Shown: piece by piece, positions 10,257 through 64,000 of the stretch
Layout: every line of letters begins with the position of its first letter
Position numbering within the stretch: position 1 is the first letter of the stretch
NCBI GenBank assembly: GCA_046542255.1
Contig: JBKHBT010000001.1
Coordinates: 41,627 to 105,626, forward strand
Direction of reading: 5' to 3'
From: Candidatus Zixiibacteriota bacterium
Lineage (GTDB): Bacteria; UBP14; UBA6098; JBKHBT01
Length of the DNA stretch: 64,000 nucleotides
The notes under the pieces: model-generated
What the model was told of the DNA's origin: nothing
What the model saw: only the letters and a program-made list of their open reading frames with translations
Database searches by the model: none
Made by a program: the position numbers and the translations under genes

Positions 10257-10274
10257 ATTACAGGAGGTTTAATA

Positions 10275-11051: not shown

Positions 11052-11066
11052 TAAGTAAATAAAGAG

Positions 11067-12752: not shown

Positions 12753-12768
12753 TTTAGATTATATCATG

Positions 12769-12795
12769 GCCCGACATTGAATGTCTGGCTTTTTT
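12769..12795 (+). terminator. Putative intrinsic terminator after the DsbD-like gene
   Basis: gcc(c)gacat-tga-atgtctggc imperfect hairpin (one bulge) at 12769-12789, followed by TTTTTT at 12790-12795. Confidence 0.5.
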
Positions 12796-12805
12796 ACTTT
12801 AGGAG

Positions 12806-13477: not shown

Positions 13478-13518
13478 ATTCCAAAAACTATTTTGAAAAT
13501 CTACTCAGGGGGCTTAAA

Positions 13519-17388: not shown

Positions 17389-18903
17389 ATGGAATCGATA
17401 ATACCAAAAGCGGCATTAGTATCTGTTTATAACAAAAATCACGATGTCATAGAGTTTGCCAAAAAATTACTCGACTATGGCATAGATATCTATGCATCGA
17501 GTGGAACTTATGCATATCTCAAAAAAAGCAATATCGTATCTTATCCGCTGGAGCAAATTACAGGCTTCGAGAAGCTTCTCGATGGAAGAGTCAAGACACT
17601 TCATCCTAATATATATTCTGCAATTCTGGGCAAAGAAGATGACCGCAAGAGAGAATTGGCTTTTGATATTGTGGCAGTCGATTTATATCCTTTCGAAGAT
17701 GCCCTGAAATCAGGAAAGCCTCAGAATGATCTTATCGAGATGGTCGATATCGGTGGTGTTGCTTTGCTTCGCGCTTCTGCTAAGAATTATCATTATGTTC
17801 TTTCAATATGCGGAACATCCCAGCTACTAAAAGCCGCTGACCACATGGATGAAAACGATGGCAAGATTCTTCCAGAATTTTCAGCGAAATTTGCAAGGCA
17901 TTCCTTCCAATATACATCATATTACGATTCACTAATCTCGGCCGGCCTCTTTACCGATGAAGATGAGTTTCCCAAGTATATGTCATTGCCATTAAAAGTG
18001 GGACAGAAGCTGCGATATGGCGAAAATCCACATCAAAAGGCAATTTACTACAAACACTCCATTCCTTCACTGACAGGCAGAATGGAAAAGCTCTGGGGCA
18101 AAGACCTATCATACAATAATATTCTCGACATCGATGGCGCCATCCATGCACTTGCTCATCTATGGGGCAAAATTGGTGTTGTTGTTCTAAAGCATACTTC
18201 GCCATGTGGTATAGGAATTGGCAGCAATCAGGTGGATGCCTATGAAAAGGCGCTCGCATCAGATCCGCTTTCTGCTTTTGGCGGTGTTATTGGTGTCAAT
18301 GAAAAGGTCGGGCTGGAACTTGCAAAGTTAATATTGCGATTTTTCGTAGAGGTTGTTGTGGCACCGGATTTCGATGAGGATGCATTGGAGATATTCAAGG
18401 GCAAGAAGAATATCCGCATAGTCAGAATGCCCGACATCGGTTCTTATCCCGAGAAAATAGTTCGCGGAGTAGCCGGCGGATGTCTTGTCTCGGATTTCGA
18501 TAGTCCACAGGAGATTCCAGATTTTGAAGTCGTTTCAGAGAAAATGCCTACTGATGATCAGGTCTGCGATTTGCATTTTGCATGGCGTGCGATCAAGTCT
18601 GTCAAATCCAATTCGATTTTGATTGCCAAAAATGGCGGAACAGTAGGAATTGGCGGTGGCCAGCCCAGTCGGGTAGATGCTGCTATATCTGCAGTTCGGA
18701 AGGCTCAGGATGCTGCGATTGGCGCAGTTGCTGCATCGGATGCTTTTTTGCCTTTCCCGGATACCCTTCAAGTACTTGCGGATGCTGGAGTTACAGCATT
18801 GATACAGCCCGGCGGAAGCAGAAATGATAAGTTATCTATCGAGATGGCGAATAAGCTTGGAGTGGTTTTGGTATTTACCGGGATGAGGCATTTTAGGCAT
18901 TAA
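17389..18903 (+). CDS. purH: Bifunctional AICAR transformylase / IMP cyclohydrolase
   Basis: 504 aa. N-terminal MGS-like domain (ALVSVYNK…GTYAYL). C-terminal …VVLVFTGMRHFRH is the canonical PurH end. AGGAGG RBS. Confidence 0.92.
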   Translation: MESIIPKAALVSVYNKNHDVIEFAKKLLDYGIDIYASSGTYAYLKKSNIVSYPLEQITGFEKLLDGRVKTLHPNIYSAILGKEDDRKRELAFDIVAVDLYPFEDALKSGKPQNDLIEMVDIGGVALLRASAKNYHYVLSICGTSQLLKAADHMDENDGKILPEFSAKFARHSFQYTSYYDSLISAGLFTDEDEFPKYMSLPLKVGQKLRYGENPHQKAIYYKHSIPSLTGRMEKLWGKDLSYNNILDIDGAIHALAHLWGKIGVVVLKHTSPCGIGIGSNQVDAYEKALASDPLSAFGGVIGVNEKVGLELAKLILRFFVEVVVAPDFDEDALEIFKGKKNIRIVRMPDIGSYPEKIVRGVAGGCLVSDFDSPQEIPDFEVVSEKMPTDDQVCDLHFAWRAIKSVKSNSILIAKNGGTVGIGGGQPSRVDAAISAVRKAQDAAIGAVAASDAFLPFPDTLQVLADAGVTALIQPGGSRNDKLSIEMANKLGVVLVFTGMRHFRH

Positions 18904-26400: not shown

Positions 26401-28554
26401 ATCCGAAACAGAAACATAAACCGTAATCTCATCACCATCATCCATGGAAATTGGCGGTTCGAATTCAAGGTTTCCATCTTCGAATGTCATATAATCTGGA
26501 TAGTCATACTCCGAGCCTTCGACAGTTATCGTGATAGAAGTCTCATCGACACCCATCAAATCGGAAATCTCGAAAATCATAGAAAGCTCGGGACATGAAG
26601 TATAGATTGTCGGCTCGATAAGCTCGACCTCTGGTGGTAAGGTGTCCACAAAGAAGCTCCAGCAGCGAGCATTGGAATTTCTGTCACAATATGCAGCATT
26701 GTCGATAGCAGTGATACAAACTTCGACAGAATCACCAGTATAGATACCTGCTTCATCACCGTCTATGCTGAGTGCGCCAGTAACTGGCTCAAATAGAATG
26801 CCGTCTTCGATAAGTATGCCATTGACAGTTATCAGAAAGCCAGTAGCATCGATTCCCGAAAGGTCATCAGCGATATTTGCATGGATATCGAAGCTGGGAT
26901 CGGCTATTAAAGTGTCTGGATTTGGTGATAAATCGGTTATCTCCGGCGGCAATAAATCGAAAATGATTTCGAAAGTATCCGGGTCATAAATACTGAAGCC
27001 TGCGGTATTTCGGACATTAGTCAATACTCCTGTAACAGTATCGCCATGTTCGAAGCAGCCTTCTTCGCCCTCGGGTTCAAAAAACAGCGTATCGCCGGAA
27101 ACTCTGAAACTGGTATAGTCGAAGCCGTGGCCTTCTATCATAGCATCCATAGTACCGGGTTCTATATCGATAGAATCAGGCATTTCGACAAGCCATGCCA
27201 CTCTTGCACATTCGCAGCTTGTAATCTCAGTAGGGTAGAGCAGTGTAACTTCGGGAGCCGGAACATCTGCTTCTATTAATATCCAATGGAAAATCGGCCT
27301 GCCAACGCCTCTGTCCATAAGGACACGATATTGGAAATATCGAAATTCCATATCCAGGTCTTCGCCTTCTTCCACATCGAACCAGTCTGTCCAATCTACA
27401 TCATCGAGGGATATGCGCGCCTGTACTGAAAGGCTTGCAAGCTCGGGTACGGTCTCCGACCAGGTTATTCTTTCAAGTGTGCCGATTCCTGGCAGTGATT
27501 TGACATCGGATTTATAATCCCCAACACCGACACCGCCATTATAGGCATAGTACATGGAATTGATCATGGCCTTGGCTTCCCATTCTATTGGCCGGAATGT
27601 CTCCGGAGAGCCCCTTAACTCTTCAGACTCATGGCCAGTGCTGAAAAATGAAAAGAAGGAATTGTGTTCCGGGTCATTATAAGTATGCATATATGGGATT
27701 CCTGCGTCATTGACATACCACAAATCGCCTCTATCGTGGACTTCGCCAAAATCGTGACACTCTGTAACATCGAACTCTTCGGGCAATACAAATGGTACAT
27801 TCATAACAATTGCATCACCATCTGCGCCGGGCGCCCTTTGCACATGCGTCCATGTTTCATCGGGTACGCAGCAATCTACCCATTCGGCTCTAAGGCCAGT
27901 AAGCTCTGTCATATTGTTAAAATTGGGATGTTCGAAATTATCACTGACTGAACAGCATAGCATTTCCCATGGCCATAAATCATAATGGTCCCTTCCCCAT
28001 CTTTTGGCAATAACATCATGGGTAAAAACAACTCCTTTTCCAAGACGAGCAAATTCTTCGACGGCATTTCTGGCTTCTTCGGAAATATCATTGCTCGAAC
28101 CACCATAACCATTAGCAATGCCGAAAAATATAATATGAAAAAAGGAAACTGGAAGGGTAACTGTGCCACCTGTATATGCGTTTTCGACAGTAAGCTCATC
28201 AGAAGCAGAAGAAATCGAATTGAAATCGTCAAACTCTATTAGGTAAATTCCGAATGTCAACCTGGGCGTGCCATCATCGGAATATTCATTGATAGGGTCA
28301 CTGAGACATTCGACACAATGGTCTTCTGGATAAATTTGAAGGACATAAATTGTATCGTTTTCAGTAAATATCAAAGCGCCATTATCCGGATCTGGTAATC
28401 CATCGGGATCCGGGCTTATGACATCGATATTTTCTGCATCGCCAGTGGAGAAATCAAAAACAGTAGTTTCATAAAATTCTATTGGATAAGCGATTATGCT
28501 TATCGTAAATACAAAAAGAATAAGTCCGATGCATAATTTGGCATACTTAGCCAT
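23473..28554 (-). CDS. Giant secreted cell-surface protein with T9SS type-B C-terminal sorting domain
   Basis: 1693 aa. Signal peptide. N-terminal alpha/beta region (HIIFFGIANGYGG…GKGVVFTHD). Many ~100-aa Ig-like modules. The last ~90 aa are FTPNDDGYNDDIDFSF…GKIEIFDMRGQ…GTYLYIITVDGERVCKGTLTLIR, the gliding-motility/CHU_C-type T9SS type-B CTD (FTPNGDGxND motif). Confidence 0.75.
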   Translation of the reverse strand: MAKYAKLCIGLILFVFTISIIAYPIEFYETTVFDFSTGDAENIDVISPDPDGLPDPDNGALIFTENDTIYVLQIYPEDHCVECLSDPINEYSDDGTPRLTFGIYLIEFDDFNSISSASDELTVENAYTGGTVTLPVSFFHIIFFGIANGYGGSSNDISEEARNAVEEFARLGKGVVFTHDVIAKRWGRDHYDLWPWEMLCCSVSDNFEHPNFNNMTELTGLRAEWVDCCVPDETWTHVQRAPGADGDAIVMNVPFVLPEEFDVTECHDFGEVHDRGDLWYVNDAGIPYMHTYNDPEHNSFFSFFSTGHESEELRGSPETFRPIEWEAKAMINSMYYAYNGGVGVGDYKSDVKSLPGIGTLERITWSETVPELASLSVQARISLDDVDWTDWFDVEEGEDLDMEFRYFQYRVLMDRGVGRPIFHWILIEADVPAPEVTLLYPTEITSCECARVAWLVEMPDSIDIEPGTMDAMIEGHGFDYTSFRVSGDTLFFEPEGEEGCFEHGDTVTGVLTNVRNTAGFSIYDPDTFEIIFDLLPPEITDLSPNPDTLIADPSFDIHANIADDLSGIDATGFLITVNGILIEDGILFEPVTGALSIDGDEAGIYTGDSVEVCITAIDNAAYCDRNSNARCWSFFVDTLPPEVELIEPTIYTSCPELSMIFEISDLMGVDETSITITVEGSEYDYPDYMTFEDGNLEFEPPISMDDGDEITVYVSVSDNVANTLESEAFSVTRDFAPPYLVDEYPEAGYVIGDSITDIYFNLDDELSGFDTSTVSIMIDGVSYDPIWDGTRFYLSEDVVPHFDDYDTVEVCTYFQDLAGYCGENEGDTCWSFSINLSGPIANFIMPEDETVTSCNEGPLYLSIRDVNGVVESSIEFYIDGEFFTTTSPSASYIGDTLIYTPSPAWSHGDTVDVMVTAAEDSLGNPISDTLEGRFYVDTSPPHVLPIYPRIGGTAAGDPVMSIYIYDEIAGIDPSSIIVDVNDTELRYIDSPAGMWLSDSEDTIYIDFAAAGLSFEDTAYIEIQIADAPDFCEANSTTFEYFFVVDMVGPEAYFILPDSGAYSSCENQEIRLWLYDDNGLDLESMVFNVNDSTFPWPASELSLNDDTLIFRPTAPFGHGDSITASLMQISDTLGNEHTDEIFTEFYIDIEPPELLEVSPEPDSVIIGQFDVPVWFIIDDDMCGIDFETMIFTIDSDTLDNSHLDINGDTVYFDPSDVAFSYSEDDSFDFTIYIADCAEYCGANDTFYNTNFYIPDDDTLPPIMHSPSPSNWVQDSAFYIEFALEDSSGIFITGDFSDAQAAYIEWDTDGELDISSNRIYIEFHDFVDGDSIYRSRAPIPAQDGDIIVSWRLHCYDNDFDLDNRDDRTLLLSEIHEVNIAPRPDIELIHPPNGSVIACQSEEDHVLFFSIHSEEQVEESSIEIEIDGEIFTLSDYRLELTSPDTIVFSPSEPFDQGSLLVRLNGLSDIYGYEAVQRTWHLVFDFSPPQLWFSYPEPGEMIPDDAPYVEFGAMDYFSDVNTNAFAAYILSAYYDTIATVTSLDCIEETTDSSGTWDINFNACGFDYSGYDSFTVIVYAEDSPDFCSPNWRTDTLKFWVEPDLDCGLSTNPFTPNDDGYNDDIDFSFPNLYSLGGKIEIFDMRGQKARTIEVDAGEIEKSVFDGKSDNDKDLPSGTYLYIITVDGERVCKGTLTLIR

Positions 28555-28568: not shown

Positions 28569-29129
28569 TTAGATATTATATCTGATACCGATTAAAATAG
28601 TTGAAAAGGATGGATTAGAGAGCACGGCTCTTGTTGAGAAATTAGCAGTGAAGTCTTCATTTAGTTTATAGTCTGCGCCCAGCTCTACCCTCGGCTGAAA
28701 ATATGCTGGTTCGGAAGAATCTTCATCTGATGTTTCACGCGGATAATCTCGTAAAATAACATTAACACCTAAGCCAGCTCCAATATATGGCTTCACTTCC
28801 CAATCGACCTCCGGCCTGAATAGGCCTTTTACTGCACCGCCGATGACTGTTAGCTTTACCGGGCTGATGCCTTCTTTAGGGTCACTTTCATCGGCCTTCA
28901 TATACTCTAATTCGAGAGCTAATGATAGTTTTGGTATTATTGTACCAAAATCAGCCATCAGATTAGTTGCGAAACCTGGTGCATATTTTGCATAAGGTAT
29001 TGAAAGCCCGCCTCTGATACCAATATTCTTCAAGCCCATATCTGTGCCACTTTTCGGTGCAAGGTTATCGATTCCCTGTGAATATACAACTGTCGCAAAT
29101 AAAAAGACAATGAGCAATGTTTTTCTCAT
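28569..29129 (-). CDS. Small outer-membrane beta-barrel protein (OmpW/OmpA-barrel-like), co-transcribed with the type-B T9SS protein
   Basis: 186 aa. Signal peptide. Alternating hydrophobic beta-strand pattern consistent with about 8 strands. GGAGGG RBS 5 nt upstream. Only 14 nt separate its stop from the next ATG. Confidence 0.55.
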   Translation of the reverse strand: MRKTLLIVFLFATVVYSQGIDNLAPKSGTDMGLKNIGIRGGLSIPYAKYAPGFATNLMADFGTIIPKLSLALELEYMKADESDPKEGISPVKLTVIGGAVKGLFRPEVDWEVKPYIGAGLGVNVILRDYPRETSDEDSSEPAYFQPRVELGADYKLNEDFTANFSTRAVLSNPSFSTILIGIRYNI

Positions 29130-33036: not shown

Positions 33037-33305
33037 CCTCCTTTGATTTGGTATTCCCCAGTTTGCTTTAATTTAATCATTCTCTAATAATAATGCACAT
33101 ACAATGGCTGAAAGTCAATAATTTTTTTAATTAGAGTTTCCAGCCGATTATTTTGAGTAGAATAGATTAAATATTGGAAAAACAGTAAGCTATTGATTTA
33201 GGAATATTGTTAGATTCACCTAAATGTTGCTCAAATAACAGACAATGTATGATCCCGCGCGGATTTAATTTAAACATCAATAAAAAGTGTTAAAAATTCT
33301 TATTG

Positions 33306-33428
33306 CTCTTTTAAAGCCATATATATATAACACATATATAATACTTAATACATATACTCAAAAGGCTTTACTGATGTTTTAGCCTGAAAAGTATGACAAT
33401 GCGGAACAGCGCATTGTCTGGATTAACC
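33306..33428. repeat. Copy A of a ~120-bp repeat element. It is inverted relative to copy B and contains the 9-bp-stem hairpin gacaatgcg-N6-cgcattgtc at 33395..33418
   Basis: The reverse complement of 33306-33428 aligns with 47921-48038 at about 90% identity. Differences are mainly indels in the (TA)n-rich tract. Confidence 0.8.
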
Positions 33429-48699: not shown

Positions 48700-51600
48700 A
48701 TGAATAAAAATACTGTTTTTGCGTTTTTGCTGTTTGTATTAATCTTATCTACAACCTTATTTTGGTTTGCATGCCAAAAAACTTCTAATCCCATTGGGGT
48801 TCAGGAAGATAAAAATTGGATTATTGATTCTCTTTATACCGTTCCATCGAGTTTTCCTTATCAGGGGATTGGGTATGTATATGCAGATGTAGTCGATGAA
48901 GAGACTGGCGAACCATGCGATGATCCATCGATTTATGTTACATTTTCCAGTCCCAATGATACCAGTATTTTTAGCAATTCCATTTCTTATGTCAATAGCG
49001 ATGGAATCGCTGCCTCTCGAGTCAGTCTGAGAAATATTACCGATACAACTGAAACCCTGGTTGTTATAGATGCGACTATTGAATATCCCAATACAGACTA
49101 TGAAAGTTATTATCTAAGCGTTGGTGACCAGGCAGCATCTAAAGCTGCTGATATCGAGCTGGAGGCAAGGCCGGATACCGTTTTTGCTGATTCGTATGAT
49201 ACCGTTATGGTCTCTTGCACAGTAATCGATTCATTTGGAAGCACGATTGAAAATGTCAGGGTTTACCTTGAAAGCGTAAGCCGAAATTTCACTATTCCAT
49301 CTGGCAATTATTATACCGATGAAACCGGAGTAGCGCATGTGCCGATTCCGGCGCCAACTGCGCCGGGTGAAGGCGTTCTTCGGGCTTATGTATATGGAGC
49401 CGCAGAAACTATCGTAGATGATACTGTTAGTTTCTGGTTCATTCCTGAGGCACCTGTTAGTAATATACAGCTTACTTCCGATGATATGCAGATTCCTGCC
49501 GATGGAATTTCTACTACAACGCTATCGGCAAGAGTAATGGTCGGTGAACCTTCTGCGCCTGCTCCCGATGGAACACCGGTTACATTCGAATCTGATAATG
49601 GTTCTTTCCAGGACTATGTTTTCGCAACAAGAAGAAATCCTAATCCATCCGAAGCAGAAGGCGATGGTATTCAGGAGAGCCAGTCGAGCTGGACTGCATA
49701 TACCGAAGACGGAGTAGCGAGAGTGATTTTGGTTAGTTCCACCGAAGCAGATTCTGTTACAATTACCGCAACCTCAGATCTTGTAACTGCAGAACATACG
49801 ATTTTATTTACACCGGGCGAACCTGCTATCATAGAGCTTGAATCCAATGAATCTTCTTTGATTGCAGATGCTTCGGATACAACTTCGCTAACAGCTACAG
49901 TGTATGACGAATATAGAAATACTGTCAATGCCGGGATCACGATTGAATTCGATGCCGATATTGGCTTTACTTCTCCTGCGGCCTCGAATACCAATGTTAA
50001 TGGTGTCGCGAGGTCTTTACTCAGAAGTGCTAATTCTTCGGGATTAGCTACAATCACAGCTTCATATGGTTCGATTGTAGATCAAGTCGAGGTCATCTAT
50101 CGTTCGACTACGCCACAAAGGCTGACAATGACTGTCGAACCGAATGAGCTACTCGCAGATGGCTCCGAAACGGCAACTGTCCGAGTCCAGGCTTTGGATG
50201 AAAACTATATCGCAGTTACCGATGGCGTTCCGATATCATTCGAGACTAATAAGGGAAGCTTCAGTCCTGCAGCATCTTACTTAGAGAGGCCTTTCGAGAA
50301 TGATGATAACGATGAGATAAATACCGATGGAATCGATGATGATGATTTGCGGATGTCGATTAGCGAAGCGATGCTGGAAGATGATTTTGTCGCGTTGACA
50401 GAAGGAGGCTTCGCAGAGGTTACTCTCAGGAGTGATACTATTGCTGGAGTCGCTGTCGTCAGAAGTTTCCACATGACAGGCGATAGTTACGATGCAATAG
50501 ATACTGCCAGAGTTCCTTTCTATCCAGGGCCACCACAAAGAGTTGAAGTGTCTTTCTACCATGATACGATAACTGCCAATGGAGCAGACACAACTACTGT
50601 TTATGCAACAGTTTACGATGAATATAATAATAGCATCGGTAGTGGCTATACAGTTGATTTCTCTACAGTAGAAGGTTCTGTTTTCCCGACTTCGCAGACC
50701 ACAGGCTCCGATGGTATTGCAAGAACCAAACTGACATCCAGCCTTAATTCTGGAATGCACTATATTACAGCTACGGCTTCCGGGATAACAGCCAATACAA
50801 ATATCTATTTTGAAGCATCCCGGCCAGCAGAAATAACGCTTAGAGCCGATGCCTATACTATGCCGGCAGATGGTATATCAGAGAATATTCTTACAGCCTA
50901 TCTTTACGATGCTGCCGGAAGGCCTGTCTCCAACGGGACCAGAGTGGAATTTGCCTGTTCTTTGGGTGAATTCAGCCTTTCTTCTTTGTATCGTAGAGGA
51001 ATTAGCGAAGAAGAGCCGGGCGATGGAAGAAAAATCGGCCATGGTTTGCGTAGCTTCTCTACAATGGATTCAGAAGAGATTTATTATGCTTATACCGAAG
51101 ATGGCCAGGTTTCTGCCAGCCTCATCAGCCCAACTTCAGAAAGTACTGATACTTCTATTTATGCCAAAGTTGTAACCGATTCGATTATACCACCGGCTGA
51201 CACGCTTGTTTTAGCAGATACTATATCGATTTCTTACATATCCGGTGATATTTCAAGAATTGGAGTTGTTGCAGCACCGACAAGTATTACTAATGATAGC
51301 TCCGAAATTACCGCGACTTTATATGATGAGCATGATAATCCAATGGGCGAAGGAATACTCGTTGAGTTTTCCACTACAATGGGTTCTGTTAATTCGCCAA
51401 TAGTAACCGATACATTGGGCCAGGCAAAAACATACCTATTCCCGGGTTCCGAGACAGGTACAGCTACGGTTACCGCAAGAGCTGGCGAGGTTTCAGGTTT
51501 TGTTAATGTAAATATTAGGCCGGTGAATGTCGGTGAAATTTACCTTTCTCTCTCATCATCAGAAATGACAGTAGATGGCGAGACAATCGACCTCGAAGCC

Positions 51601-54600
51601 TATGTTACAGACGCAGACGGTTATCCAGTATCCGATAGTACACCAATACATTTCGAAAGTACAATTGGCGAGGTGATGCCAGTCGTCGATAATACGGCGA
51701 GAGGACTGGCAATATCTCAGTTATCTCCTACTGGCATTATTGGCAAAGATACTGTGATTGCAAGATTTGATACTTCCGTTGCAGATACTGCTTTCATTAA
51801 AATTAAAGCCGGTGCTCCAGCAAGTATCGTTATGGATGTTATGCCCGATACGATGTACACTGGTGGATTACCATCCGGGCAGGTTTGCGCAACTGTCAGA
51901 GATGTTTATGATAATATTGTAGCATTTGGCACTGTGATTAATTTCGAAATTGGTGAAGGAGCGATTATTCCACAAGCGCCTACCGATAGCTCAGGTATTG
52001 CAACAGCGACTGTTACATCTCCTTTAGAGCCGGGAGCTACATACATTACAGCAAGCTATGGCGGTGTTTCTTCGACTGTACCGGTGGTTTTCGAAAGCTC
52101 ACCTGCATCAGAAATTATTTTGACAGCTTCCAGCAATGAGATTACTTTGGATGAAATATGTTCTCTAACGGTTGTTGCTATCGACACAATCAGTGGTGTA
52201 ATAAGCGATGGTGTCCGGGTTAATTTCATAAGTGATTTTAGTGATATTGTACCTCCAATCGCTTTTATCGAAGATGGCGAAGCTGTTTCTTATGCCTATC
52301 CAAATGAAGTAAATACTGATAGAATCGTTGCAATAGTTGGAGAACTTGCCGACACTGTCGAAGTCAACTATAATCCGGGAGATGTTACCAGAATCGAGAT
52401 TACTTCTGATGAAAGCTGGATATATGCCAATGGTTCATCCCGGACAACAGTGAGAGCAAGATGTTATGATTCAGAAGATAATCCTGTCGACAGAGGCGTC
52501 AGGCTCGATTTTAGTTCTACGATGGGTGAGCTTATACCTTCATCGGGAATAGGAATAACAAATTCTAGCGGTGAAGCTACAATAATTTTGCAAAGCAGTA
52601 CAGAACCAGGCACTGCTGTTATCCAGGCTACATATGAGGATCTTATTGAATTTGTTAATATAGATTTTATCCGTTCCGGTGCTGATGAGGTAATACTCCT
52701 TCCATCATCCAGAAGCTTCAAGATTGGTGACAATGTTACTCTTAGAACTTTAGTCTATGATGAATTGGGTGATCCAATTACAGATGATACTCCTGTCGAA
52801 TTATACAGCATTCTAACAGATCCTATTGGTATTCCAGTACCATCCAGGCCAAGAACCATAGATGGCGAAGCGTTAAGCGTTCTCTCTGATCGTGGCGAAG
52901 TGGGGGTTGAGACAATTGTTGCAAATGTAGATTCTGCATACGATACAGTTTCAATAGAAATAAAACCTGGTGATCCTGCAAGGATAGAGCTTTCTGCTAC
53001 GAGTTCTTTCCTATTCGCTAATGGTTCGCATACTTGCGACATTGAAGCAACCGTTTATGATGATAATGATAACCTGCTTCATTCCGGACAGATAGTCAAT
53101 TTTAGCACATCTATGGGAGAACTGGGTTCGTCTGTTGGCGTTACGAGTGACTCGGGTGTTGCGGCTGTAGAACTTCAGTCGGGAACCGAAGAAGGCACAT
53201 GTGTTGTGCAGGCTTATATCGGCGATATCGTAGCTATCGAGACGATCGACTTTATGGCATCCAATGCAGGCAATATTCAAATTATACCATCATCCAATAG
53301 AATCACACTCGGAGAGATTGACACAGTTTTGGTCATGGTACAGGATACCGATGGTTTACCAATTTCTGATGATACACCTGTTATTCTGGAGAGCTTAAAT
53401 GATTTCTTGATTCCAATACCTGGCGTAATAAGGACATTAGATGGTGAAGCTACAGGTTATCTCTATACTGCCGGAGAGCCTGGAGTAGATACAGTAATAG
53501 CATATTCTGATCCTGAGACAGCATCGGTCGAAATAACAGTTCTGCCTGGCGAGGCAGAATTGATCGAATTGGAAGCGCTACACAATCCAATACTTGCAAA
53601 TGGAAGAGACACTTCTCGTATTCGCGCTACAATCAAAGATTCTGATGGTAACAATCTTGGCGCTGGCCAGAGAGTCGATTTCACGACTACAAAAGGCGAA
53701 ATCCAATCAACCGGAATTACAAATATCGATGGTGAAGCCGAGGTACTATTAACAGCAGGTTATGAAGATGGTACTGCCTATGTCGAAGCGACTTATGAAG
53801 ATTTATCACAAATTGTCGAAGTTCAATTGAGTGGCTCTGAAGCTTTTTGGCTCGAACTTATGCCATCTACCAACAGGCTTAGACTTGGAAATACCTGTAC
53901 ATTGGATGTTATTGCATATGATGCCTTATTCGAACCGGTAACCGATGGTTCACAGGTGTTATTTAGAAGCGATTCTGGCGTTGGACTGGTAATTCCACCC
54001 GCAACAACTACAACAGATGGCCAGACCAGATCATTTTTGTATTCGAATGAGCAAATAGGCAGGGATAGTATTTCTGCAAATATGATAGGTGCCAATGATG
54101 GCTCCTGGATTGAATTCATTGCCGGCGACCCTGCTCAGATATCAATAGAACCAGCAAGAGTTGACCTGTTTGCTGATGGATTAGATACCACACAGATCAA
54201 AGTTACAGTCTTTGATGAAGACTCTTTCCGAGTCAGCAGTGGAATCGAAGTCGATTTGGAAACAACTTCGGGAACAATCGAACCTTTGACATCATATACA
54301 AATAGCAGCGGCGAAGCTTTCGCTACTTTTACTGCGCCAACTGTTCCAACTACTGCCTATATTACCGCTACCGTTCGAGATATCGAAGCAAATGCTTTGA
54401 TTAATATCGAAAGGTCCGAACTCGGTAGCATTAGTATCATTCCAAGCAAAACAAGAATGTCGTTGGGAGAAAGCTGTACTCTGGATGTTTTCGTCTATGA
54501 TGATTCAGAATCCTATATTTCAGACGGAACAAGGGTCAGTTTCAGGTCGGAAATTGGTTTTATAACTCCGCCAATTGTGGAAACTTCTGATGGACATGTA

Positions 54601-57600
54601 CAATCGATTTTGCATACCAGAAGGGATGTCGGAACCGATATCGTTACAGCAAGTGTTGGCGGAATCGATTCTACTATCGAGATTAATTTTGTTTCTGGTA
54701 AGCCAGCTACTATCGAATTAAACCCGGACGAGAATCCTATCTATGCCAATGGTTATTCAAGGACAAGAATTGAAGCAACAGTCGAGGATGAATATGAAAA
54801 TCCTGTCAAGGCAGGATACAGGATTAATTTTAGCGCAACCTTGGGAGAACTCGAATCAGAGATTGGAGTAACCAATAGCTCAGGAATTGCCGAGGTTTAC
54901 CTAAAGAGTGGAATCAGAACAGGTACATCGGTTATACAAGGTTGGTACAATGATATTAGCGGCCTTACGATGGTTTCTTTCGACCAGGATACTGCTGGAA
55001 GTATCGAGATTATACCTTCGAGCAGTTCGATAAGACTCGGTGAAATAGATACATTAACAATAATGGTGTTCGATACAGTCGGGATGCCGATTGCCGACGA
55101 TACTCGAATCGAAGTAACACTCGATACATCGAGTACCGGTATGGTAATACCGAGGGTATTATGGACTGAAGACGGTGAAGCGACTACTTATCTGTACACC
55201 ACTGGCGATACTGGCAGAGCTATTATTACAGCAGCCGTAGGAAGAACAACCGCAACAGAAACAATTGAAATCGAGGCAGGTACGGCTGATAATATCGAGC
55301 TCAGTGCTTCTGATTCTACTTTGCCTGCAAATGGTGTTACGAGAACGAATGTCGTAGCTAAAGTATTGGACGATGAGGGATATGTCTTAGGAGCAGGCCT
55401 TGTTGTCAATTTCACCACTACAATGGGTACAATAGGCGCTGTTGCTGTAACAAATACAGATGGTGAAGCAACTACTACATTGACAGCATCAAATGATATT
55501 GGTGTTGCTCTCGTAGGAGCATCTTATGCAGGGGTCGAGCAATATATGAATGTAGAAATGGTTTATTCTGATATCGCATCTATCGATATGTTTATCGAAC
55601 CATCGACAATAAATCTTGGTGATAGCTCAATAATTAGTCTTTCTGTTCTTGATTCCGACTTTGAACCGGTTACCGATGGCACAAGACTGGAAGTAACTAC
55701 TTCTCCATTCGGATATGTCCGTCCGAGAATTGTCAGAACTGTTGATGGTGAAACTCAGGCTATTTTTAAAGGCGATGGGTTGACTGGATCTGCAACAATA
55801 AGAGCATTCCAGGATAGCTCTGTTGAAATGGCTATGGATACTATAGAAGTTCTCCCTGGTATTCCTGCTAATATACAAGTTAATGCAATTGTAGATTCAT
55901 TCTTATATGCCAATGGTGTGGATACTGCATCTATCATTGTCGAGGTTACAGATGCTGATGGCAATCCCGTTGGCGCCGGGCTAACTGTCGATCTCGAGAC
56001 AGACCTTGGGACACTCATGCCAAATATTGGAATTACAGATGACGATGGTATGGTACGAGTCCGTTATCGAGCAGCTAATTCTCCAGGACTTGCTCTTATA
56101 ACAGCTACATGCGAAGGTGAAGAAGGACTTGAAACTATAGAACTTCGAGAAGCAAATGCGGATATAATCGAGCTTTTCTCGGACAGTCCAATCATACAAA
56201 TTGGCGATACCGATACAATTTCGGCTTATGTCTATACTATAACTCCTGAAGAAGATACCTTATTCGTGTCTGATGGCACAAGAGTGAATTTCTCTACAGA
56301 CAATGGTTTAATACTACCTCCAAGCTCTAATACTGTTGATGGATATGCTTTCAGCGTGCTTAGTACAGGTAGGGAACCAGGAGAAGCAACCATTGTTGCA
56401 AGAGTTGGAGATACGGTAGATTCTACAAAAGTACAGATATTAGCCGGCAGGCCCGACAGAATCATATTGGAGGCTGAAAGGAATGATCTTTATGCCAATG
56501 GCTTCGATGAGACTACAATAAAAGCAGTAGTCGTAGATGAAGATGGCAATTCTGTTGGCAGCGGGCTTGTTTTAAATTTCTCGACGGATCTGGGAACTGT
56601 TACTTCTGCCGCTATGACGCAGGATGACGATACTGCTAGAGTAACATATACAGCCGCAAGCGAAATTGGAGTGGCAATAATTACAGCCGAATACGAAGGA
56701 ATAACTTCGATTTTACCTATTACTTTAGAAGAAGCTCCAATTGGAAATGTCGAATTAATACCATATAAAACAGAATTTGGCCTGACCGAAGTATGTACCT
56801 TGCAAGCCTTTGTAACCGATTCTGCTGGTAATGATATTGCAGATGGAACAAGAATTACATTTACCTCGAATCTCTGCCGAGTTGAGCCTCGTTATGGATA
56901 TACCGAAAGAGGTATGGTTTTTGCTGTATTGTATCCAAGAGACTCGATAGGAATTGATACTGTCGAAGCAATATGTGGTGAACGAGATATGGCTAGAATA
57001 AAAATTCTGCCTGGAGAGCCCAGTGATATTTTACTTAATACCCAGTTTGATAGAATCTATGCAAATGGTTTCGACACAACCGATATTGCTGCTCAGGTTG
57101 TAGATATTTATGGTAATCCAGTTCTACCAGGTAAACTGGTTAACTTTACAACGGATTTAGGCTCGATTATTAGTGTCGGGATAACAGATTCCCTATCACC
57201 AGATTCTATGGGAATCGCAAAATCTATATTGACCAGTGAATCAGTTCCTGGAATTGCTATTGTGAACGCTGAATGCGAAGGAGCTAGCGGTTCTATACCT
57301 GTCGAATTTATGGAATCTATCGTAGATGAAATGATTATTCATGCAGATGACAGAACATTATCTTATCGTGATACAACAAGTATCAGAGTAACTATGTTTG
57401 CAGGTGGTACATATGTTTCAGATGGAACTATGGCATTTTTCAGCGCAGAGAATGGACAAGTCAGGCCTATCATTCAATCTACAACCGATGGCGAAGCGGT
57501 AGTTGAATTTTATGCTAATGATTCTCTTGGGCCTGCTTCTGTTACCGTTCATGCTGGAGATACATCAGCTAGTGAAACAGTAGATCTAACAATCGAACCA

Positions 57601-60600
57601 GGCATTCCTTCCCGAATTCAATTAGAAGTCCAGCTGGACTCGATCTATGCAAATGGTATTTCGACAGATTCAATACATGCTACTGTTTACGATGAAGAAG
57701 ATCATATTGTAGGTCCAGGAGTAATCGTGGACTTTACAACTTCGTTAGGCACAATAGCCCCATTTGGAATAACAAATGAGGATGGCAGAGCAAGCGCAGT
57801 TTTAACCTCCGGTTCAGAAACTGGTTGGGCAAATATATCTGCTACAAGCGGAGGCGCATCGAGTAATACGCTCGTTAAATTCTTTAATGCCAATGTGGGA
57901 AGTATCGAGCTAATACCTGAAAGATATGTTATAAATCTCGGAGAAACAATAAATCTGAGAGCTTATGTCCTCGATGAGGATACACTCGAGATAACAGACG
58001 GAACCAGAGTAAGATTCTCAAGCATTCTTGGATATGTAGATCCAATAATTTCAACTACAAGTAGTGGAGAAGCATACTCGGTTCTAAATACTACTACCAA
58101 TACAGGTTTTGATACTGTAACAGCAGTCGTCGGAGATAAAGTAGATACTGTTTTTGTTGAAATACTTTCCGCAGAACCCTATAGGATTACTGTAAGTACC
58201 CAGTTTGATTCTATTTATGCTAATGGTACAGCCAAGAGTAAAGTCTATGCATATGTAGAAGATAGATATGGTAATCCAGTAGAAGACGGTACACCAATTG
58301 AATTCACTACAACTTTAGGTGAGATTATTAATGTTGCTTATACCGATAGCATAGGTGTAAATGCCGCAGGGGACCCAGTATTGCATCCTGACAGCATAGA
58401 TCATTATGAAAATGGATATGCAATAAGTGAAGTTCAAGCGCCAAATGAACTGGGTGTCGGATATATCAATGCCAGCTATGGTGCAATTAGAGGCGTTACA
58501 AGCATTAAATATTATAATGCTTCCGCTGGGCGCGTAATCCTAAGAGCAAGCAGCTCATCGATAACACTCGATGAAAAAGATACACTCACTGTTCTGGTTT
58601 ACGATGAGGATGATGCACCGATAGGTGATGGAACAGTCGTGAATTTCACTACCGCGAATGGTATGGGCATTGTTATTCCACCGGTTGCTACAACAGTAGC
58701 TGGAGAAGCGCAAGTTGTTTTCGAACCATTTGATACGATTGGTTTCGAGACAATAGTAGCCGATGTCGATGGAGAAGATGATAGCCTTACAATCGAAATA
58801 AAACCAGGTATTCCTGCAAACTTAGACCTTTTCCTTGCTGACTCTTCAGACTCGATTTTACCTGCCGATGGCTACTCAGAAGCGACTATTATGGCTCAAG
58901 TAATAGACAGATATGGTTATGAGGTCGGTTCTGGCTATCGGATTGCATTTACAACACCTACTATCGGCACAGTCGAGCCAAGCGAAGCCTATACTAATGA
59001 CCGCGGACAATGCGAAGTCAATCTTATCAGCACTACTACTGAAGGCATGGCAATTGTACGTGGTGAAGTAGAAGGCGGTATTTTCGACCAAGTCGAAGTA
59101 AGATTTGTAAATAGCTCTGTCGGCAATGTAATTCTTTCCATCGAAAATAATATTGTCCAGATCGATGAGGACAGATCCAATCAAATTAGTGCTCTGGTAC
59201 TGGATGCGTCCGGGAGAAGAATAACTGATGGAACAGAAATCGAATTCGATGCAACATATGGTGAAGCTATTCCACCGATTGCATTTACGACAGATGGTAT
59301 GGCAACGGCCGATTATTCACCAGGTATTGTTACTAATACAGATATGGTATCGGCTTATGATCCTATTTCTGGTGAATCCGATTCTTTATTCGTATCTGTT
59401 AAAGCTGGGATTTGCCAGCTATGCTCTGTTACAGTTTCTGAAGATTCTGTTGCATCGGATGGCGGAACTTGCGAGATAACAGCCTATTGCTATGATTTCT
59501 ATGACAATCCTGTCGAAGCGGGAAGACCCGTTACATTCACGACTTCGATTGGTTCGATTATTGGAACTGCCGTTACAAATGAATATGGAGAAGCAAAAAC
59601 CATGTTCACAAGTGGAAATGTATTGGGAACATCTATTATAACAGCAGTTTGTGAAGAAGGAACCGGTACTGGGGAAGTAGAAATTATAAGGCCGAATATC
59701 AGATTTATTAGTATGTCGGCAGACCCATTAAATATTACAGCAGATGGTTTTTCAACCTCTAATATAACAGTACGTGCATATGATGATGAAGCCAATCCAA
59801 TATCATCGGGAGTTATAGAATTCACAAGCTATAACGCCGAATTTGGCCCGGATAGTACATTAGGTGAAATTGACTCGATTGCTCCCATAACAGATGGAAT
59901 TGCAACAGCATTGTTTAGATCAGAAAGAGAAATTGCTACTGCATGGGTTATTGCAGAACGATTTGGTATAAGAGATAGTATTCAAATCGACTTAATCGCC
60001 GGTGAACCATTTGCAATAGATTTAAATGCAATGCCACCAAGTCTTCCTGCCGATGGCGAATCAGAATCTCAGATTACGGCGACAGTCAACGATGAATATG
60101 GTAATATTGTTAAACCGGGTACACAGGTTAATTTTTCAACTGATTTTGGTCGGCTTTCACCAGCGCGTGGCTGGACAGATAGTCTTGGACAGGTTATAGT
60201 TGATCTTGTAAGTCCTGACTCGATATGCATTACTACTATTACTGCAACATCAGGTGCTGCTGAAGGTTTTGCTACTGTTGAATTTGAAGAAGTCATTGCA
60301 GATACAATTATACTTCTTTCAGACTCACTCTCTATGGAAGCAAATGGCAACTCCAGGACGACTATTACAGCAATAGTCCAGGATTCAGACGGAGGTGTTG
60401 TCCCTGATGGAACTATTGTTAATTTCCGGGCAAGAAACTCGATTTTATTGTCCAATACTGCATTAACTACCGATGGTTTTGCCGAAGTCGAGCTTCGTGC
60501 AAGCACTAATGCTGTTGATAGTGCAAAAGTTGTTGCAAATATCGGATTGGTTTATAGCGATTCACTCGTGATGAACCTTCGTCCTGGCAATGCCGCAAAT

Positions 60601-63600
60601 ATCCTTCTCACAGCAGATGATACAACTATGAGCGCAGATGGCGACACTATGGTAAATATCTATGCATATGTAGAAGATCTATATGGAAATATCGTTACCA
60701 GTGGAACTAAAGTTAATTTCACAACTTCGCTCGGTACAATCGATAGTATTGCATTTACAGATGAACTGGGTATTGCCGAGGTCAATTTCCGTGCTGGCAC
60801 AACTCCAGGTATTGCGCAAATTATTGCAAATAGCTCTGAAGCGGTTGGAGTATTAGGAATTACTCTCGAAGATACAGAAGTAGATGAAATTCTCGTTAAT
60901 GCCGATCCAACTAGATTGGTTGTTGGTGGTACGACATCTGATATCACAGGCCAGGCATTGAATGCTCTTGGTGCTCCGATATCCGATGGCGCTCCGATAA
61001 CAATAAGTGTGCTAAATGATTCTCTTGGTACTGTTTTCCCAACAAGAGCTTTGACAGATACCGGATATTTTGCTTCGACTTTCCGAGCCGGTAGAAAAAC
61101 CGGAAATACATATATCAAAGCTGGAACTGGCAGTGCAGAAGACTCAGTCGAGATTGAATTAATTGCTGATGTTCCATATCGCTTCGATTCATTATATCCT
61201 GCCGATATAAGTATTCCTGCCGATAGCTTGACAACAACAGAAATTAGAGTCATGCTTGTAGATAGGTTTGGTAATCCTGTTGCTGCCGGAACAGAAATAG
61301 AATTTGAATCCAGCCTGGGAGATATTGAACTTAATACGACAACAGATACAGAAGGCAAGGCTCAAGTCATCTTGCAATCTGGACGCGAAAGTGGAGTTTG
61401 CAGAGTTACAGCCACATCTGGCGATGCTATTGCAACAACAGAAGTAGTATTCGATGAAACAACACCGACTTCCATATTGCTTGTGTCCGATGATAGAGAA
61501 TTAATTGCAGATGGAAATGCTAATACATTCTTAAGGGCTACTGTTTCTGATACTCTTGGTGCTGCTGTTTCCGATGGTACTCCAGTAACCTTCTCGATAG
61601 CTCCTGATTCATTAGGCTATATTCTTCCGAGAGTCGCCACTACCACCGGCGGCGAAGCTGTTTCCGTTCTCAGGGCAGCTACTTCACTCGGAGAAGCTGA
61701 AGTCATAGCACAATCCGGCGATAGCACAGGCTCGACACCGATTGAATTTATTGCAGGCCCACCATACGATATCGAAGTAGAAGTCGCTGATTCAGCACTG
61801 GATACAATCCCGGCAGATGGCTTCTCGACAAGCGATATAAGAGCGACTGTATATGATAGAAATGGAAATACAGTAGCTGGCGGTTATGAAGTTGTATTCA
61901 ATACAACTGCAGGCTCTTTAGACCCGACTACAACGACTACAAATTCCGAAGGTGAATGTATCACAACCCTTACCAGTTCAACAAGAGAAGAATTTGCTAG
62001 TGTTCGCGGTACTGTAGAAGGTACAATAATAGACCAGACCGAAGTATTCTTCCAGTCCAGCACAGTTGACGATATAATTTTGACTATTGAAAATAATAAT
62101 GTACAAATAGGCGATGATACACCTAATACAGTAACCGCTCTGGTAGTCGATGCTTTCGATAGAAGAGTAAGTGATGGTACATATGTTACTTTCCAGGTCG
62201 ATTATGGCGAATTGCTTTCAATGGATGGCTATACGAGCGATGGAGTAGTAACGACCGATTATCTGCCGGCTACTGTCGATAGTTCAGATACTATAATTGC
62301 CTTTAATTCTGATTCAACAGTCGCAGATACTGTAACTGTGAGTGTCAAGCCAGGAATCTGCCGAAATATAACTGTCGATGTCGATCCACCAGAAATAGCT
62401 TCTGATGGCCGTGGCTCCAGTGCGATTAGTGCAGAATGTTATGACTTCTATGGTAATCCTGTCGAAGCTGGACGTGATGTTACTTTCACAACTACGATTG
62501 GTACTGTGATTGGAACAAGTATTACTAATGAAAATGGAATCGCACGCTCTATTTTAACCAGTGGCCCAGAATTGGGTACAGCCGTCATAACAGCAAGATG
62601 CGAAGATGGCGTAGGCACAAATGAAGTGGATATCATCGAACCAGAGATCGCTTTCATAAGCGTGAATGCTGACCCAATCGATATCACTGCTGATGGTGTA
62701 TCGACTTCGGAGATTACAGCCAGAGTTTATGATGACGAGGCAAATCCAATAACAAGTGGACTTATCAAATTCTCGAGCTTTGATTCATTAGGTAGTATAA
62801 TGGGCGATATCGACACTATTGCTGCTATATCTGGTGGAATTGCAACAGTAGATCTTCGCTCAGCGCCAACTGTCGGCACTGCTATTGTTAAAGCATACAC
62901 AGATGCAGGAATTTCCGATAGTATCCTGGTAGATTTTATTCCAGGAGTACCTAATTCTATAGAATTAGAAGCTAATCCAGATACACTACCGGCAGATGGA
63001 CTTTCTCTCTCACAAATCAAGGCCAAAGTCAAAGACGAATTTGGCAATACAGTAAAACCCGGAACACAGGTCAACTTTGCAACAGAATTCGGACGACTTT
63101 CTGCCAGTAGAGGTTGGACAGATGATACCGGATGCGTTTTTATCGAACTAACAAGTGCAGACTCTATCGGAGTAACAACTATTACAGCAGAATCCGGCGA
63201 TGCAATCGGATTCGAAAATGTAGAGTTTACTCCAATTGTTGCCGCATCGATAGAAATCTATTCAGACTCGATGTCTCTGGAAGCCAATGGTAATTCGCGT
63301 ACAACGGTTAATGCCACTGCCCTCGATGCTGATGGACTCGCAGTTCCTAATGGTACTCCAATAAGATTCTACACGACCGAAGGAATCATGATTCCGAATT
63401 CTGCTACAACTTCAGAAGCCATAGCATTATCCGAGCTTCGCGCCAGCACCAATGCCGGCGATACAGCTTTTGTCTACGCAGAAGCCAGTGCTACGGTTCG
63501 TTCTGATAGCATTGGAATATACCTGAGGCCTGGTGAAGCTGGTAATATTGTCCTGACACCAAATGAAAGCACCTTACCCGCAGATGGCGATACATTCACA

Positions 63601-64000: not shown

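Follow-up and report, generated by a model that had tools for sequence, protein, structure and literature searches.

The window, by which we mean the whole 64,000-nucleotide stretch of Candidatus Zixiibacteriota DNA analysed here, carries the 5' part of a giant gene that is real and runs beyond the window end. The + strand frame that begins with the ATG at 48700 stayed open for 5,100 codons up to position 63999 with no stop, whereas the remaining five frames contained 128-415 stops. A gene call on the NCBI contig CAZORF010000001.1 extended the product from the identical start to 9,325 amino acid residues. With moderate confidence, we propose that this genuine gene encodes a lipid-anchored fibre of Big_1 domains, which would be exported by Sec, carry an adhesion tip at its C-terminus and be expressed from a promoter with a short untranslated leader.

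The original prediction had described a gene that starts at this ATG behind an AGGAGG ribosome binding site, is absent from the program-made list of open reading frames, continues past the window end and encodes a lipoprotein-like signal followed by at least 50 Ig-like units of two alternating subtypes. All these points were borne out: the frame is indeed missing from the list, the signal matched a lipobox expression with Cys25, and the domain search returned Ig-like units of the Big_1/Invasin_D3 type. The proposed role as a surface adhesin or fibre is reasonable by homology and fold, which point to such a function by analogy.

The giant gene, its assembly and its upstream region

The features of the gene start and of the region in front of it are as follows.

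33303-33424, - strand: copy A of a dispersed intergenic repeat of ~120 nt, which pairs with copy B
43095-44591, + strand: Lnt gene (Pfam)
44588-46855, + strand: Reg_prop beta-propeller gene (Pfam)
46852-47826, + strand: GNAT/FemAB-like acyltransferase gene (Pfam)
47827-48699, no strand: intergenic spacer of 873 bp with 27 % GC, the longest gap in the window
47928-48041, + strand: copy B of the ~120-nt repeat, inverted with respect to copy A
47934-47957, + strand: terminator-like hairpin, GC-containing and with a T-rich tail, 108 nt past the stop of the GNAT gene
48635-48662, + strand: promoter-like TTGACT-N16-TATATT, 10 of 12 consensus positions, ending 38 nt before the ATG
48685-48691, + strand: ribosome binding site TAGGAGG, which includes the upstream in-frame stop TAG and is identical in the orthologue L018
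48700-64000, + strand: 5' part of the giant gene with Big_1 repeats, 5,100 codons out of 9,325, from the open frame, Pfam and the gene call

The ATG at 48700 is the earliest possible one, the closest in-frame stop upstream being the TAG at 48685, and the AGGAGG at 48686-48691 is separated from it by 8 nt. The GC content at the three codon positions was 51, 47 and 30 %, which fits a genuine coding sequence. The contig CAZORF010000001.1 belongs to a Candidatus Zixiibacteriota MAG (GCA_964582205.1) and was 99.99 % identical to the window. On this contig the full gene comprises 27,978 nt, so that the window carries the first 55 %; its stop codon would lie at the window-equivalent position 76677 and the contig ends ~7 kb further on. 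The accessions of the assembly and of the run gave no match in the literature. The full product of ~0.98 MDa is acidic with a pI of ~4, its length of 9,325 residues resting on this one short-read MAG assembly.

The source being a MAG, the 28-kb frame might be an assembly artefact or a pseudogene, namely a chimera in which repeats were collapsed or strung together, and 9,325 residues are ~1.8 times the very uniform ~5,050-5,400 residues of the relatives. Against this stands a frame of 15.3 kb with no stop. The repeat units are 23-62 % identical, and the DNA repeats within the window part of the gene are at most 85 nt long and mostly less than 80 % identical, which leaves nothing for an assembler to collapse and speaks against the worry about collapsed repeats that had accompanied the original prediction. 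A separate short-read (Logan) contig from the same run is broken just 5' of the giant gene, but the break at 47979 falls inside the intergenic repeat copy B and outside the gene. The orthologue L018, which comes from another metagenome and is colinear and syntenic with 39-48 % identity from residue 1, supports the reality of the gene. Its own giant gene is frameshifted, but the genes upstream of it are split as well, which suggests that assembly errors affect this contig in general. An artefact is highly improbable.

The order Lnt, Reg_prop, GNAT and giant gene is kept in L018. For the spacer behind the GNAT gene, an unusually long AT-rich leader with repeat copy B and short palindromes had been proposed and taken as a sign of complex regulation. 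The length, the AT-richness and the repeat copy stood, whereas the palindromes did not exceed chance (4 observed 10-mers versus 4.2 expected) and an excess of inverted repeats vanished after the repeat element and a TA-run had been removed. At a permissive threshold, Rfam gave no match in the spacer or across the whole window; the window contained no tRNAs and the spacer no convincing small open reading frames. The repeat copies A and B are 89 % identical over 122 nt on opposite strands, and the terminator-like hairpin lies inside copy B in a position that would serve the upstream gene. The spacer is shorter in L018 (318 bp) and in the closest complete relative (147 bp).

Close to the ATG, the TTGACT-N16/17-TATATT arrangement is conserved in L018. 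Promoter-like sites in this region were not above the shuffled expectation, so that the support for this one is its conservation in two sequences. A promoter-like site 38 nt from the ATG implies a short 5' untranslated region, and most of the spacer is then probably not a leader. The most likely start of transcription is this conserved TTGACT/TATATT site, ~30 nt 5' of the ribosome binding site. On this promoter reading, the AT-rich spacer would consist mostly of a terminator and a repeat element with no regulatory leader, and taken together these results speak against complex regulation.

The Ig-like repeat array, its fold and its relatives

The array was divided into the following parts.

48862-49482, + strand: divergent Ig-like units u01-u02 (residues 55-261), 21 and 44 bits with a self-built HMM
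49483-64000, + strand: units u03-u51 with A/B alternation, from the self-built HMM, identity offsets, AlphaFold and Foldseek
58849-61203, + strand: super-repeat copy 1, units 34-41, each with its best partner ten units later at 43-62 % identity
61798-64000, + strand: super-repeat copy 2, units 44-51, paired unit by unit with copy 1 and cut by the window end

Pfam Big_1 (PF02369) and Invasin_D3 (PF09134) matched every third of the window product with E-values of 1e-72 to 1e-124, scoring 248-406 bits per third against gathering cut-offs of 33-35. With the self-built HMM, 51 units with a period of ~97 residues were found in the window part, the last being cut by the window edge. If this period holds beyond the window, the whole protein would contain about 95 domains. 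Two subtypes A and B alternate, as seen from a mean identity of ~31 % at even offsets and ~23 % at odd offsets. Lone type-A units reached 33-44 bits in Pfam, whereas lone type-B units were weak or undetected there and were found by the self-built HMM. Residues 1-157 gave no Pfam match and u02 only a sub-threshold Big_1 score of 30 bits; the u01-u02 region is colinear with the N-termini of relatives by homology. Insertions of 20-45 residues were present in u03, u05 and u07. NCBIfam contains no family for the giant protein.

Between the two super-repeat copies, the DNA identity is only ~70-78 %, over short stretches. As judged from the pairing of the units, the last ten units of the window are an old ten-unit super-repeat or segmental duplication. 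The domains are built from a two-domain A/B module, which has undergone separate amplification in each lineage, this duplication being part of it here. The ~23 % identity between neighbours plausibly limits misfolding between adjacent domains.

The fold was predicted with AlphaFold for u12 and u13 together (pLDDT 96.3). The best Foldseek matches of this model were InvE (5n40), intimin (6tpl, D0-D1) and invasin (1cwv), the latter with a TM-score of 0.71 across both domains, and a sequence profile search of the PDB returned invasin at 1e-13. On the basis of the model, the array consists of invasin/intimin-type Big_1 beta-sandwich domains in unbroken tandem. The S-layer proteins SbsC, SbsB and Sap were matched by Foldseek as well (E-values of 1e-9 to 1e-6), and the fold match to SbsC also stands beside the adhesin reading.

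Among the best 150 representatives of 1.84 billion proteins, the giant protein itself did not appear and the closest matches were 36-37 % identical. The longest of these representatives has 7,473 residues, and the 9,325 residues of the present protein place it among the longest Big_1 chains seen. A word search with the N-terminus found relatives of at most 33 % identity. The relatives include giants of Zixibacteria-like MAGs annotated as "Ig-like domain-containing protein", such as MBN1756367.1 (P0010, 5,163 residues) and RKZ31968.1 (5,158 residues, in the cluster of P0011). The P0010 group shares 34-37 % identity, a homologous N-terminus, the lipobox, a CQKT(G/S) motif and the A/B module with its parity preserved, but its members have ~5,050-5,400 residues instead of 9,325. 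They end in a Cys-containing two-domain cap with the motifs NEC..GSYA and GNPICGE, which is followed downstream by genes for a barrel and a TPR protein. The window gene, in contrast, is placed after Lnt, Reg_prop and GNAT.

A profile of the C-terminal cap found 10 relatives in the GTDB genomes. In the complete relatives, the C-terminus consists of Big_1-like domains and a charged tail. A search of metagenome contigs with the N-terminal profile gave no match, and the last 600 residues of the window part found no related locus in genome or metagenome contigs.

The N-terminal signal and possible routes to the surface

48700-48774, + strand: signal peptide with the lipobox LFWFA/C, from a lipobox expression; the codon of Cys25 is at 48772-48774

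The signal has a lysine at position 3 and no charge in residues 5-24, and its F-W-F-A-C25 fits a PROSITE-type expression, on which the assignment is based; the Trp at -3 and the Phe at -2 are atypical. The family motif CQKTSNP follows directly at the cysteine. The lipobox and the post-Cys motif were also found in P0010, P0140, P0018, P0012, P0040 and the orthologue L018, and relatives that keep them with a CQKT(G/S)-type motif are only 20-40 % identical. When the relatives with a plausible start residue were inspected, 37 of the 144 had a lipobox. Beyond the signal there was no further hydrophobic segment in 5,100 residues. Pfam detected neither an IAT beta-barrel nor LysM; residues 1-1500 matched only Big_1, Invasin_D3 and GH2_C5, and the first Ig-like unit begins at residue 55. 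The lnt gene sits in the conserved gene order upstream. By its signal, the giant protein is probably lipid-anchored at the N-terminus. A precedent is the lipoprotein InvL of Acinetobacter baumannii, which has invasin-like Ig domains, lacks a barrel and requires the T2SS to be exposed at the surface (PMC9245377).

In the proposed mechanism, the protein would be exported by Sec and lipidated on Cys25 by Lgt, Lsp and Lnt, and the fatty acids would be its sole membrane anchor. The chain of domains would form a stiff rod that projects from the outer membrane and presents a putative tip at its C-terminus, by which the cell would adhere to particles or other cells. In invasin, one domain spans ~3.6 nm; with this literature value, the rod would measure ~0.2 µm for the window part and ~0.35 µm for the full protein. 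The outer membrane might be crossed either through a T2SS, which is the route of InvL and PulA, or through a dedicated barrel/TPR pair like that beside related giants.

Alternatively, the protein could be a T9SS cargo. After Sec export, a C-terminal domain outside the window would direct it through the type IX system across the outer membrane, and it would be attached C-terminally, like the giant gliding adhesin SprB, the lipobox being a mere signal peptide. In favour of this route, the window encodes a PorV/PorQ-like protein as well as a protein of 1,693 residues that carries the T9SS domain CHU_C. Zixibacteria are members of the FCB group, and the gene upstream of the relative P0010 codes for a T9SS-tailed S8 peptidase. 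The closest complete relatives (P0010, P0011, P0013, P0016 and P0040), however, have no Por_Secre_tail or CHU_C at their C-termini, and a Cys lipobox with its post-Cys motif, kept in distant relatives, would be unexpected for an ordinary SPase I signal. We consider this route unlikely.

A component of a surface layer or sheath, in which laterally packed Ig-like chains would surround the cell as a coat or spacer, has a slim chance of being correct. The acidic and extremely long product and the matches to SbsC, SbsB and Sap would suit such a coat, but sequence and fold are nearer to invasin, intimin and InvE. A chain of 95 domains with one lipid anchor is unlike the known lattice-forming S-layer proteins, and in the 5,100 residues Pfam detected neither SLH nor another domain of the kind that anchors S-layer proteins.

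Similarly improbable is export by a split system of the type-V or Slam kind, with the giant as its passenger: a separately encoded small outer-membrane barrel would let the lipoprotein through, helped by a large TPR protein. At least 9 related loci contain, in a row, a Big_1 giant of 5,052-5,394 residues, a conserved protein of ~265 residues and a TPR protein of ~855 residues. For the ~265-residue protein, the structure prediction gave a beta-barrel (pLDDT 75.6) with Pla/OmpT, the EstA/EspP autotransporter barrels and FapF as best matches, but its TM-scores of ~0.42-0.45 denote a generic barrel only. One of the TPR proteins showed a weak TPR_Slam match. Adjacency, however, is no proof of function, and profiles of the barrel and TPR proteins found no member on the contig of the giant gene or in the window, in word-index searches that may miss divergent members.

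A more far-reaching view, to which we give little credence, would see a distinct class of megadalton Big_1 fibres that are held only by the N-terminal lipid and reach the surface by an undescribed route set by the post-Cys motif C-Q/E-K/Q-x-G/S-x-x-x-P, in many relatives with the help of a dedicated, separately encoded small outer-membrane barrel and a large TPR protein. If true, it would constitute a 'split' inverse-autotransporter or Slam-like exporter of surface lipoproteins in FCB candidate phyla. For the favoured lipid-anchored fibre, the mechanistic question is how a lipoprotein of ~1 MDa that lacks a fused barrel crosses the outer membrane. Testable leads on its export come from the conserved post-Cys motif and from the barrel/TPR genes adjoining the giants of relatives.

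Comparison with known surface proteins

A giant surface protein is often what a bacterial genome invests most in, and such proteins largely decide what an uncultured organism sticks to. For the phylum Zixibacteria, known from metagenomes alone, the gene provides a concrete candidate for attachment to particles or cells.

The best sequence and fold matches were the type Ve proteins invasin, intimin and InvE, which share Big_1 and Invasin_D3 in a rod-like tandem. In these, a 12-stranded beta-barrel at the N-terminus, with LysM in some of them, is combined with 2-47 Ig domains and a lectin-like tip, whereas the giant has no barrel, a lipobox signal in its place and a predicted ~95 domains. An inverse autotransporter was rejected, as no IAT_beta barrel was present and the Ig units begin at residue 55.

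LigA and LigB of Leptospira are surface lipoproteins with tandem bacterial Ig-like domains, 12-13 of the Big_2 type. They resemble the present protein as surface lipoproteins of tandem Ig-like domains but differ in having Big_2 instead of Big_1. A Lig-type lipoprotein was rejected, since Pfam reported no Big_2 match for the window product at E<=0.01.

The giant adhesins of the T1SS are not known to have a cleavable N-terminal Sec signal, carry a C-terminal RTX/T1SS signal, are encoded next to T1SS genes and often contain near-identical repeats. The window protein differs in its Sec/SPII signal, its Big_1 domains and its strongly diverged repeats. An RTX/Bap-type adhesin of the T1SS was rejected because a Sec signal is present and no T1SS genes (ABC, MFP, OMF) occur in the 48 kb upstream of the giant gene. 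SiiE, BapA, LapA and MpIBP are described as proteins of half a megadalton to several megadaltons, in which 50-120 Ig-like domains project a binding tip from the Gram-negative surface (PMC5466336, PMC7493085, PMC4083281), and the window protein is alike in being a giant chain of many Ig-like domains.

InvL, a lipid-anchored surface adhesin, has a lipoprotein signal together with invasin-like Ig domains and lacks a barrel (PMC9245377). It has 492 residues, few domains, a lectin-like end and a proven T2SS dependence; the giant has 9,325 residues and belongs to another phylum, and the window showed no T2SS genes. In conclusion, the gene product belongs with the giant tandem-Ig surface proteins already known from bacteria, among which it is an unusually large member.

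Reading frame and domain array of the giant gene

From the ATG at 48700 to the final base of the window, the giant gene runs for 5,100 codons without a stop; over the same 15.3 kb, the remaining forward frames contained 283 and 412 stops, and the reverse-strand frames between 128 and 415 each. The closest in-frame stop on the 5' side is the TAG at 48685, which forms the first three bases of TAGGAGG, so the ATG at 48700 is the earliest possible start. A consensus ribosome binding site lies 8 nt 5' of it. The GC content at codon positions 1, 2 and 3 was 51, 47 and 30% (window 41%), a pattern typical of genuine coding sequence. The original prediction had described this frame correctly, including its coordinates, the upstream ribosome binding site and its absence from the six-frame ORF listing.

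That the gene continues past the window end was borne out by the record CAZORF010000001.1 (GCA_964582205.1; 125,350 bp), where the gene call begins at the same ATG and gives 9,325 residues. Window base 1 is base 41,628 of this record, and the gene is expected to end at about record position 118,304 (window-equivalent 76,677), ~7 kb short of the record's end. Over the 24 kb compared, the two sequences differ at two bases, both far from the giant gene: 35414 and 35456, each C in the window and T in the record, in the 5' part of a minus-strand nitroreductase gene. The NCBI titles of neighbouring proteins read 'MAG: ... [Candidatus Zixiibacteriota bacterium]'.

The domain search proposed at the outset returned the Pfam families Big_1 and Invasin_D3 throughout the window product, at 241-406 bits for each third. 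With an HMM grown iteratively from a single unit, 51 units with a period of ~97 residues were found in the window part, the last (u51) being cut short where the window ends. Units u01 and u02 are divergent, and insertions of 20-45 residues occur in u03, u05 and u07. Mean pairwise identity was ~31% at even offsets versus ~23% at odd offsets and the units therefore belong to two strictly alternating subtypes, A and B, in agreement with the predicted array of at least 50 Ig-like units. The lower value, that of adjacent domains, fits what is known of tandem-domain proteins, in which neighbours tend to differ. Single type-A units match Pfam Big_1 at 33-44 bits; single type-B units gave a weak Pfam match or none. 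The window part has a mass of 538 kDa, which scales to ~0.98 MDa for the full 9,325 residues, and the 97-residue period would correspond to ~95 domains.

Units 34-41 each have their best partner 10 units on (units 44-51) at 43-62% identity, an old 10-unit segmental duplication. For such an array, an assembly artefact has to be considered, and collapsed repeats had been raised as a concern; collapse by the assembler is unlikely, since the longest DNA repeats inside the gene are at most 85 nt and mostly <80% identical.

One A+B pair was modelled with AlphaFold, using the other 20 pairs of the protein as the alignment, and gave two beta-sandwiches (pLDDT 96.3). The top Foldseek matches in the PDB were InvE (5n40), intimin D0-D1 (6tpl) and invasin (1cwv), the last with a TM of 0.71 and an rmsd of 3.8 Å including both domains, and InvD and FdeC were also among the best. 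Among solved structures, the sequence profile of the pair likewise picked out invasin (1e-13), together with InvE and intimin. NCBIfam contained no specific family for the giant protein. A rival reading is that the protein forms an S-layer-like coat instead; the S-layer protein SbsC matches the model lower down the Foldseek ranking.

Relatives and the proposed N-terminal lipid anchor

When the last 1,200 residues of the window product were searched exhaustively with HMMER against 1.84 billion representatives, 2,614 matches reached E<=1e-3 and 380 of them E<=1e-30, and these numbers indicate a populous, mostly unnamed class of tandem Big_1 giants, labelled 'Ig-like domain-containing protein' or 'adhesin/invasin'. 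The best matches have 3,200-6,900 residues and are 34-37% identical to the giant protein; the longest among the best 150 has 7,473 residues, and the giant protein sits at the top of the tandem Big_1 size range. The N-termini of the giant protein and its relatives are colinear and homologous. Their units show no one-to-one correspondence and only the A/B parity is preserved, so the two-domain module expanded independently in each lineage.

In the first 25 residues, MNKNTVFAFLLFVLILSTTLFWFAC, a basic n-region leads into an uncharged core of 20 residues and then F-W-F-A-C. With Cys25, this segment fits a PROSITE-style lipobox pattern, which upholds the predicted lipoprotein-like signal, and the closest relatives share it.

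Lipobox and post-Cys residues of the giant protein and related Big_1 proteins
Giant protein: FWFAC-QKTSNP
P0140 and the L018 orthologue: FWFAC-QKTGGVSP
P0010: VWIAC-QKTGNMSP
P0018: VWFSC-SKKGTINP
P0012: VFSSC-QQRGNLNP
P0040: LWFGC-EQKGDVSP

The cysteine and its flanks are kept among proteins just 20-40% identical, which argues that it is functional, i.e. lipidated. The residues following it may act as a sorting signal. The first Ig-like unit starts at residue 55. No second hydrophobic segment was found in the first 5,100 residues, and Pfam detected neither an IAT beta-barrel nor a LysM domain in the window part.

Spacer and conserved upstream gene order

The related locus L018 (JGI 3300045917, Ga0496409_0004149) carries P0140 at 10001-14322, a syntenic orthologue. 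The following order is common to both loci.

Window 43095-47826 (+) and L018 5104-9682: Lnt, Reg_prop beta-propeller protein, GNAT/FemAB-like acyltransferase, then the AT-rich gap and the giant gene

The L018 product is colinear with the giant protein from residue 1, with 39% identity over 1,095 residues and then 48% over 344. Its gene has a frameshift at codon 1096 and is later truncated by the contig end; since the Lnt and Reg_prop genes upstream also appear split, this suggests assembly errors and not a pseudogene. Conservation of the order, with giants just 39-48% identical, may reflect a functional coupling of lipoprotein N-acylation to a giant lipoprotein. The GNAT gene at 46852-47826 (+) encodes 324 residues and has the same length and identical DNA at locus L001. 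Two adjacent full-length serpin genes, 40568-41755 and 41766-43007 (+), lie directly upstream of lnt (Pfam Serpin, E 1e-95 and 1e-112).

The spacer before the giant gene measures 873 bp in the window, 318 bp (28% GC) at L018 and 147 bp at the P0010 locus and is thus not a conserved feature. A proximal block, ...CTTGACTA-N-TATATTGA...TTTAGGAGGT...ATGAA, is kept between the giant gene and its L018 orthologue. It includes the region's best sigma-70-like match, TTGACT-N16-TATATT at 48635-48662 (10/12 consensus), and from this putative promoter a 5' UTR of ~30 nt is predicted. The distal part contains the repeat copy that had been noticed originally, one of a pair occupying the window's two longest intergenic gaps.

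47928-48041 (+): copy B of a ~120-nt dispersed repeat, in the distal spacer, 89% identical to the inverted copy
33303-33424 (-): copy A, in the second-longest intergenic gap

Copy B opens with a GC-containing hairpin and T-run, 108 nt past the GNAT stop and terminator-like. An independent assembly of short reads from the same run has a contig end inside it, as expected for a multi-copy element, which could be MITE/REP-like or a small RNA gene. The proposed complex regulation found no support: 10-mer inverted repeats, originally noticed as short palindromes, were at or below chance in the spacer outside the repeat (4 versus 4.2 expected; 0 versus 2.3 on the 3' side of the repeat), no Rfam family matched the spacer including the repeat, small ORFs were unconvincing, and the length is unconserved. 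The AT-rich DNA could serve as a binding site of nucleoid proteins.

Possible export routes and comparison with known systems

Within its first 5,100 residues, the giant protein has a Sec/SPII-type signal and an unbroken invasin-type Ig chain and no fused barrel. We propose that it is lipidated at Cys25, to which the lnt gene in the conserved order is an only suggestive pointer, and that the lipid would hold it in the outer membrane. The rod of ~95 domains would then project from the cell by an estimated ~0.35 µm, at the ~3.6 nm per domain of the invasin rod, and would bear a C-terminal tip encoded beyond the window.

As a rival for the outer membrane route, the protein could be T9SS cargo, and T9SS parts are present in the host, but the relatives have no T9SS CTD: none was found at the C-termini of the complete proteins P0010, P0011, P0013 and P0016, where Pfam sees Big_1 only. 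These four share a two-domain cap with the Cys motifs NEC.GSYA and GNPICGE and a charged tail. Elsewhere in the window, the following genes were observed.

159-4020 (+): flagellar export genes fliR-flhB-flhA
7259-8836 (+): 525-residue Omp85/POTRA protein, weak ShlB/FhaC-type match, not adjacent to the giant gene
10275-11051 (+): DUF1573 / OS_HP2-family (seleno)protein-like gene, not adjacent to the giant gene
13519-14454 (+): PorV/PorQ-like gene
23473-28554 (-): 1,693-residue CHU_C (type IX secretion domain) protein
28569-29129 (-): small OMP barrel, adjoining the CHU_C gene

Since CHU_C, PorV/PorQ-like and fliR-flhB-flhA genes share the window, the organism has flagella as well as T9SS parts.

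Another rival is export by a split barrel/TPR system. At nine or more related loci, giants of nearly constant size (5,052, 5,158, 5,163, 5,268, 5,277 and 5,394 residues) are followed by a conserved gene set encoding a ~265-residue protein, a ~855-residue TPR protein, a cyclophilin and a nitroreductase.

Related loci with uniform giants and the cassette: L004, L007, L008, L010-L012, L014-L017, L019-L021

The ~265-residue protein has no Pfam family and is a predicted outer-membrane beta-barrel (AlphaFold pLDDT 75.6; best Foldseek matches Pla/OmpT, FapF and the autotransporter barrels EstA/EspP, TM ~0.42-0.45). The four genes may form a dedicated export or assembly module. Profile searches found no orthologue of the barrel or TPR protein on a contig of this record's length, 125,350 bp, and none was found in the window. 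At a further locus, L006, masked N runs (~11576-11680 and ~18500-18600, GTDB contig) stand directly 3' of the related giant gene. There is a small chance that anchoring by lipid, together with the barrel/TPR genes linked to such giants, points to a new export route.

Among known systems, the giant protein falls into the Big_1/Invasin_D3 repeat superfamily. The defining N-terminal barrel of inverse autotransporters is missing from it. A T1SS giant adhesin was rejected, as the protein starts with a Sec signal and the 48 kb upstream yielded no T1SS genes, and a Lig-type protein was rejected because no Big_2 domain was found in the window part. Of the characterised analogues, InvL of A. baumannii comes closest: this lipoprotein carries invasin-like Ig domains, lacks a barrel and requires the T2SS for its surface exposure (PMC9245377). 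The giant protein is ~19-fold larger and, by analogy, would work most like InvL. It belongs with the unnamed giants of Zixibacteria-like MAGs. As a class, giant surface proteins have already been recognised (PMC11573180; bioRxiv 10.1101/2023.11.21.568195).
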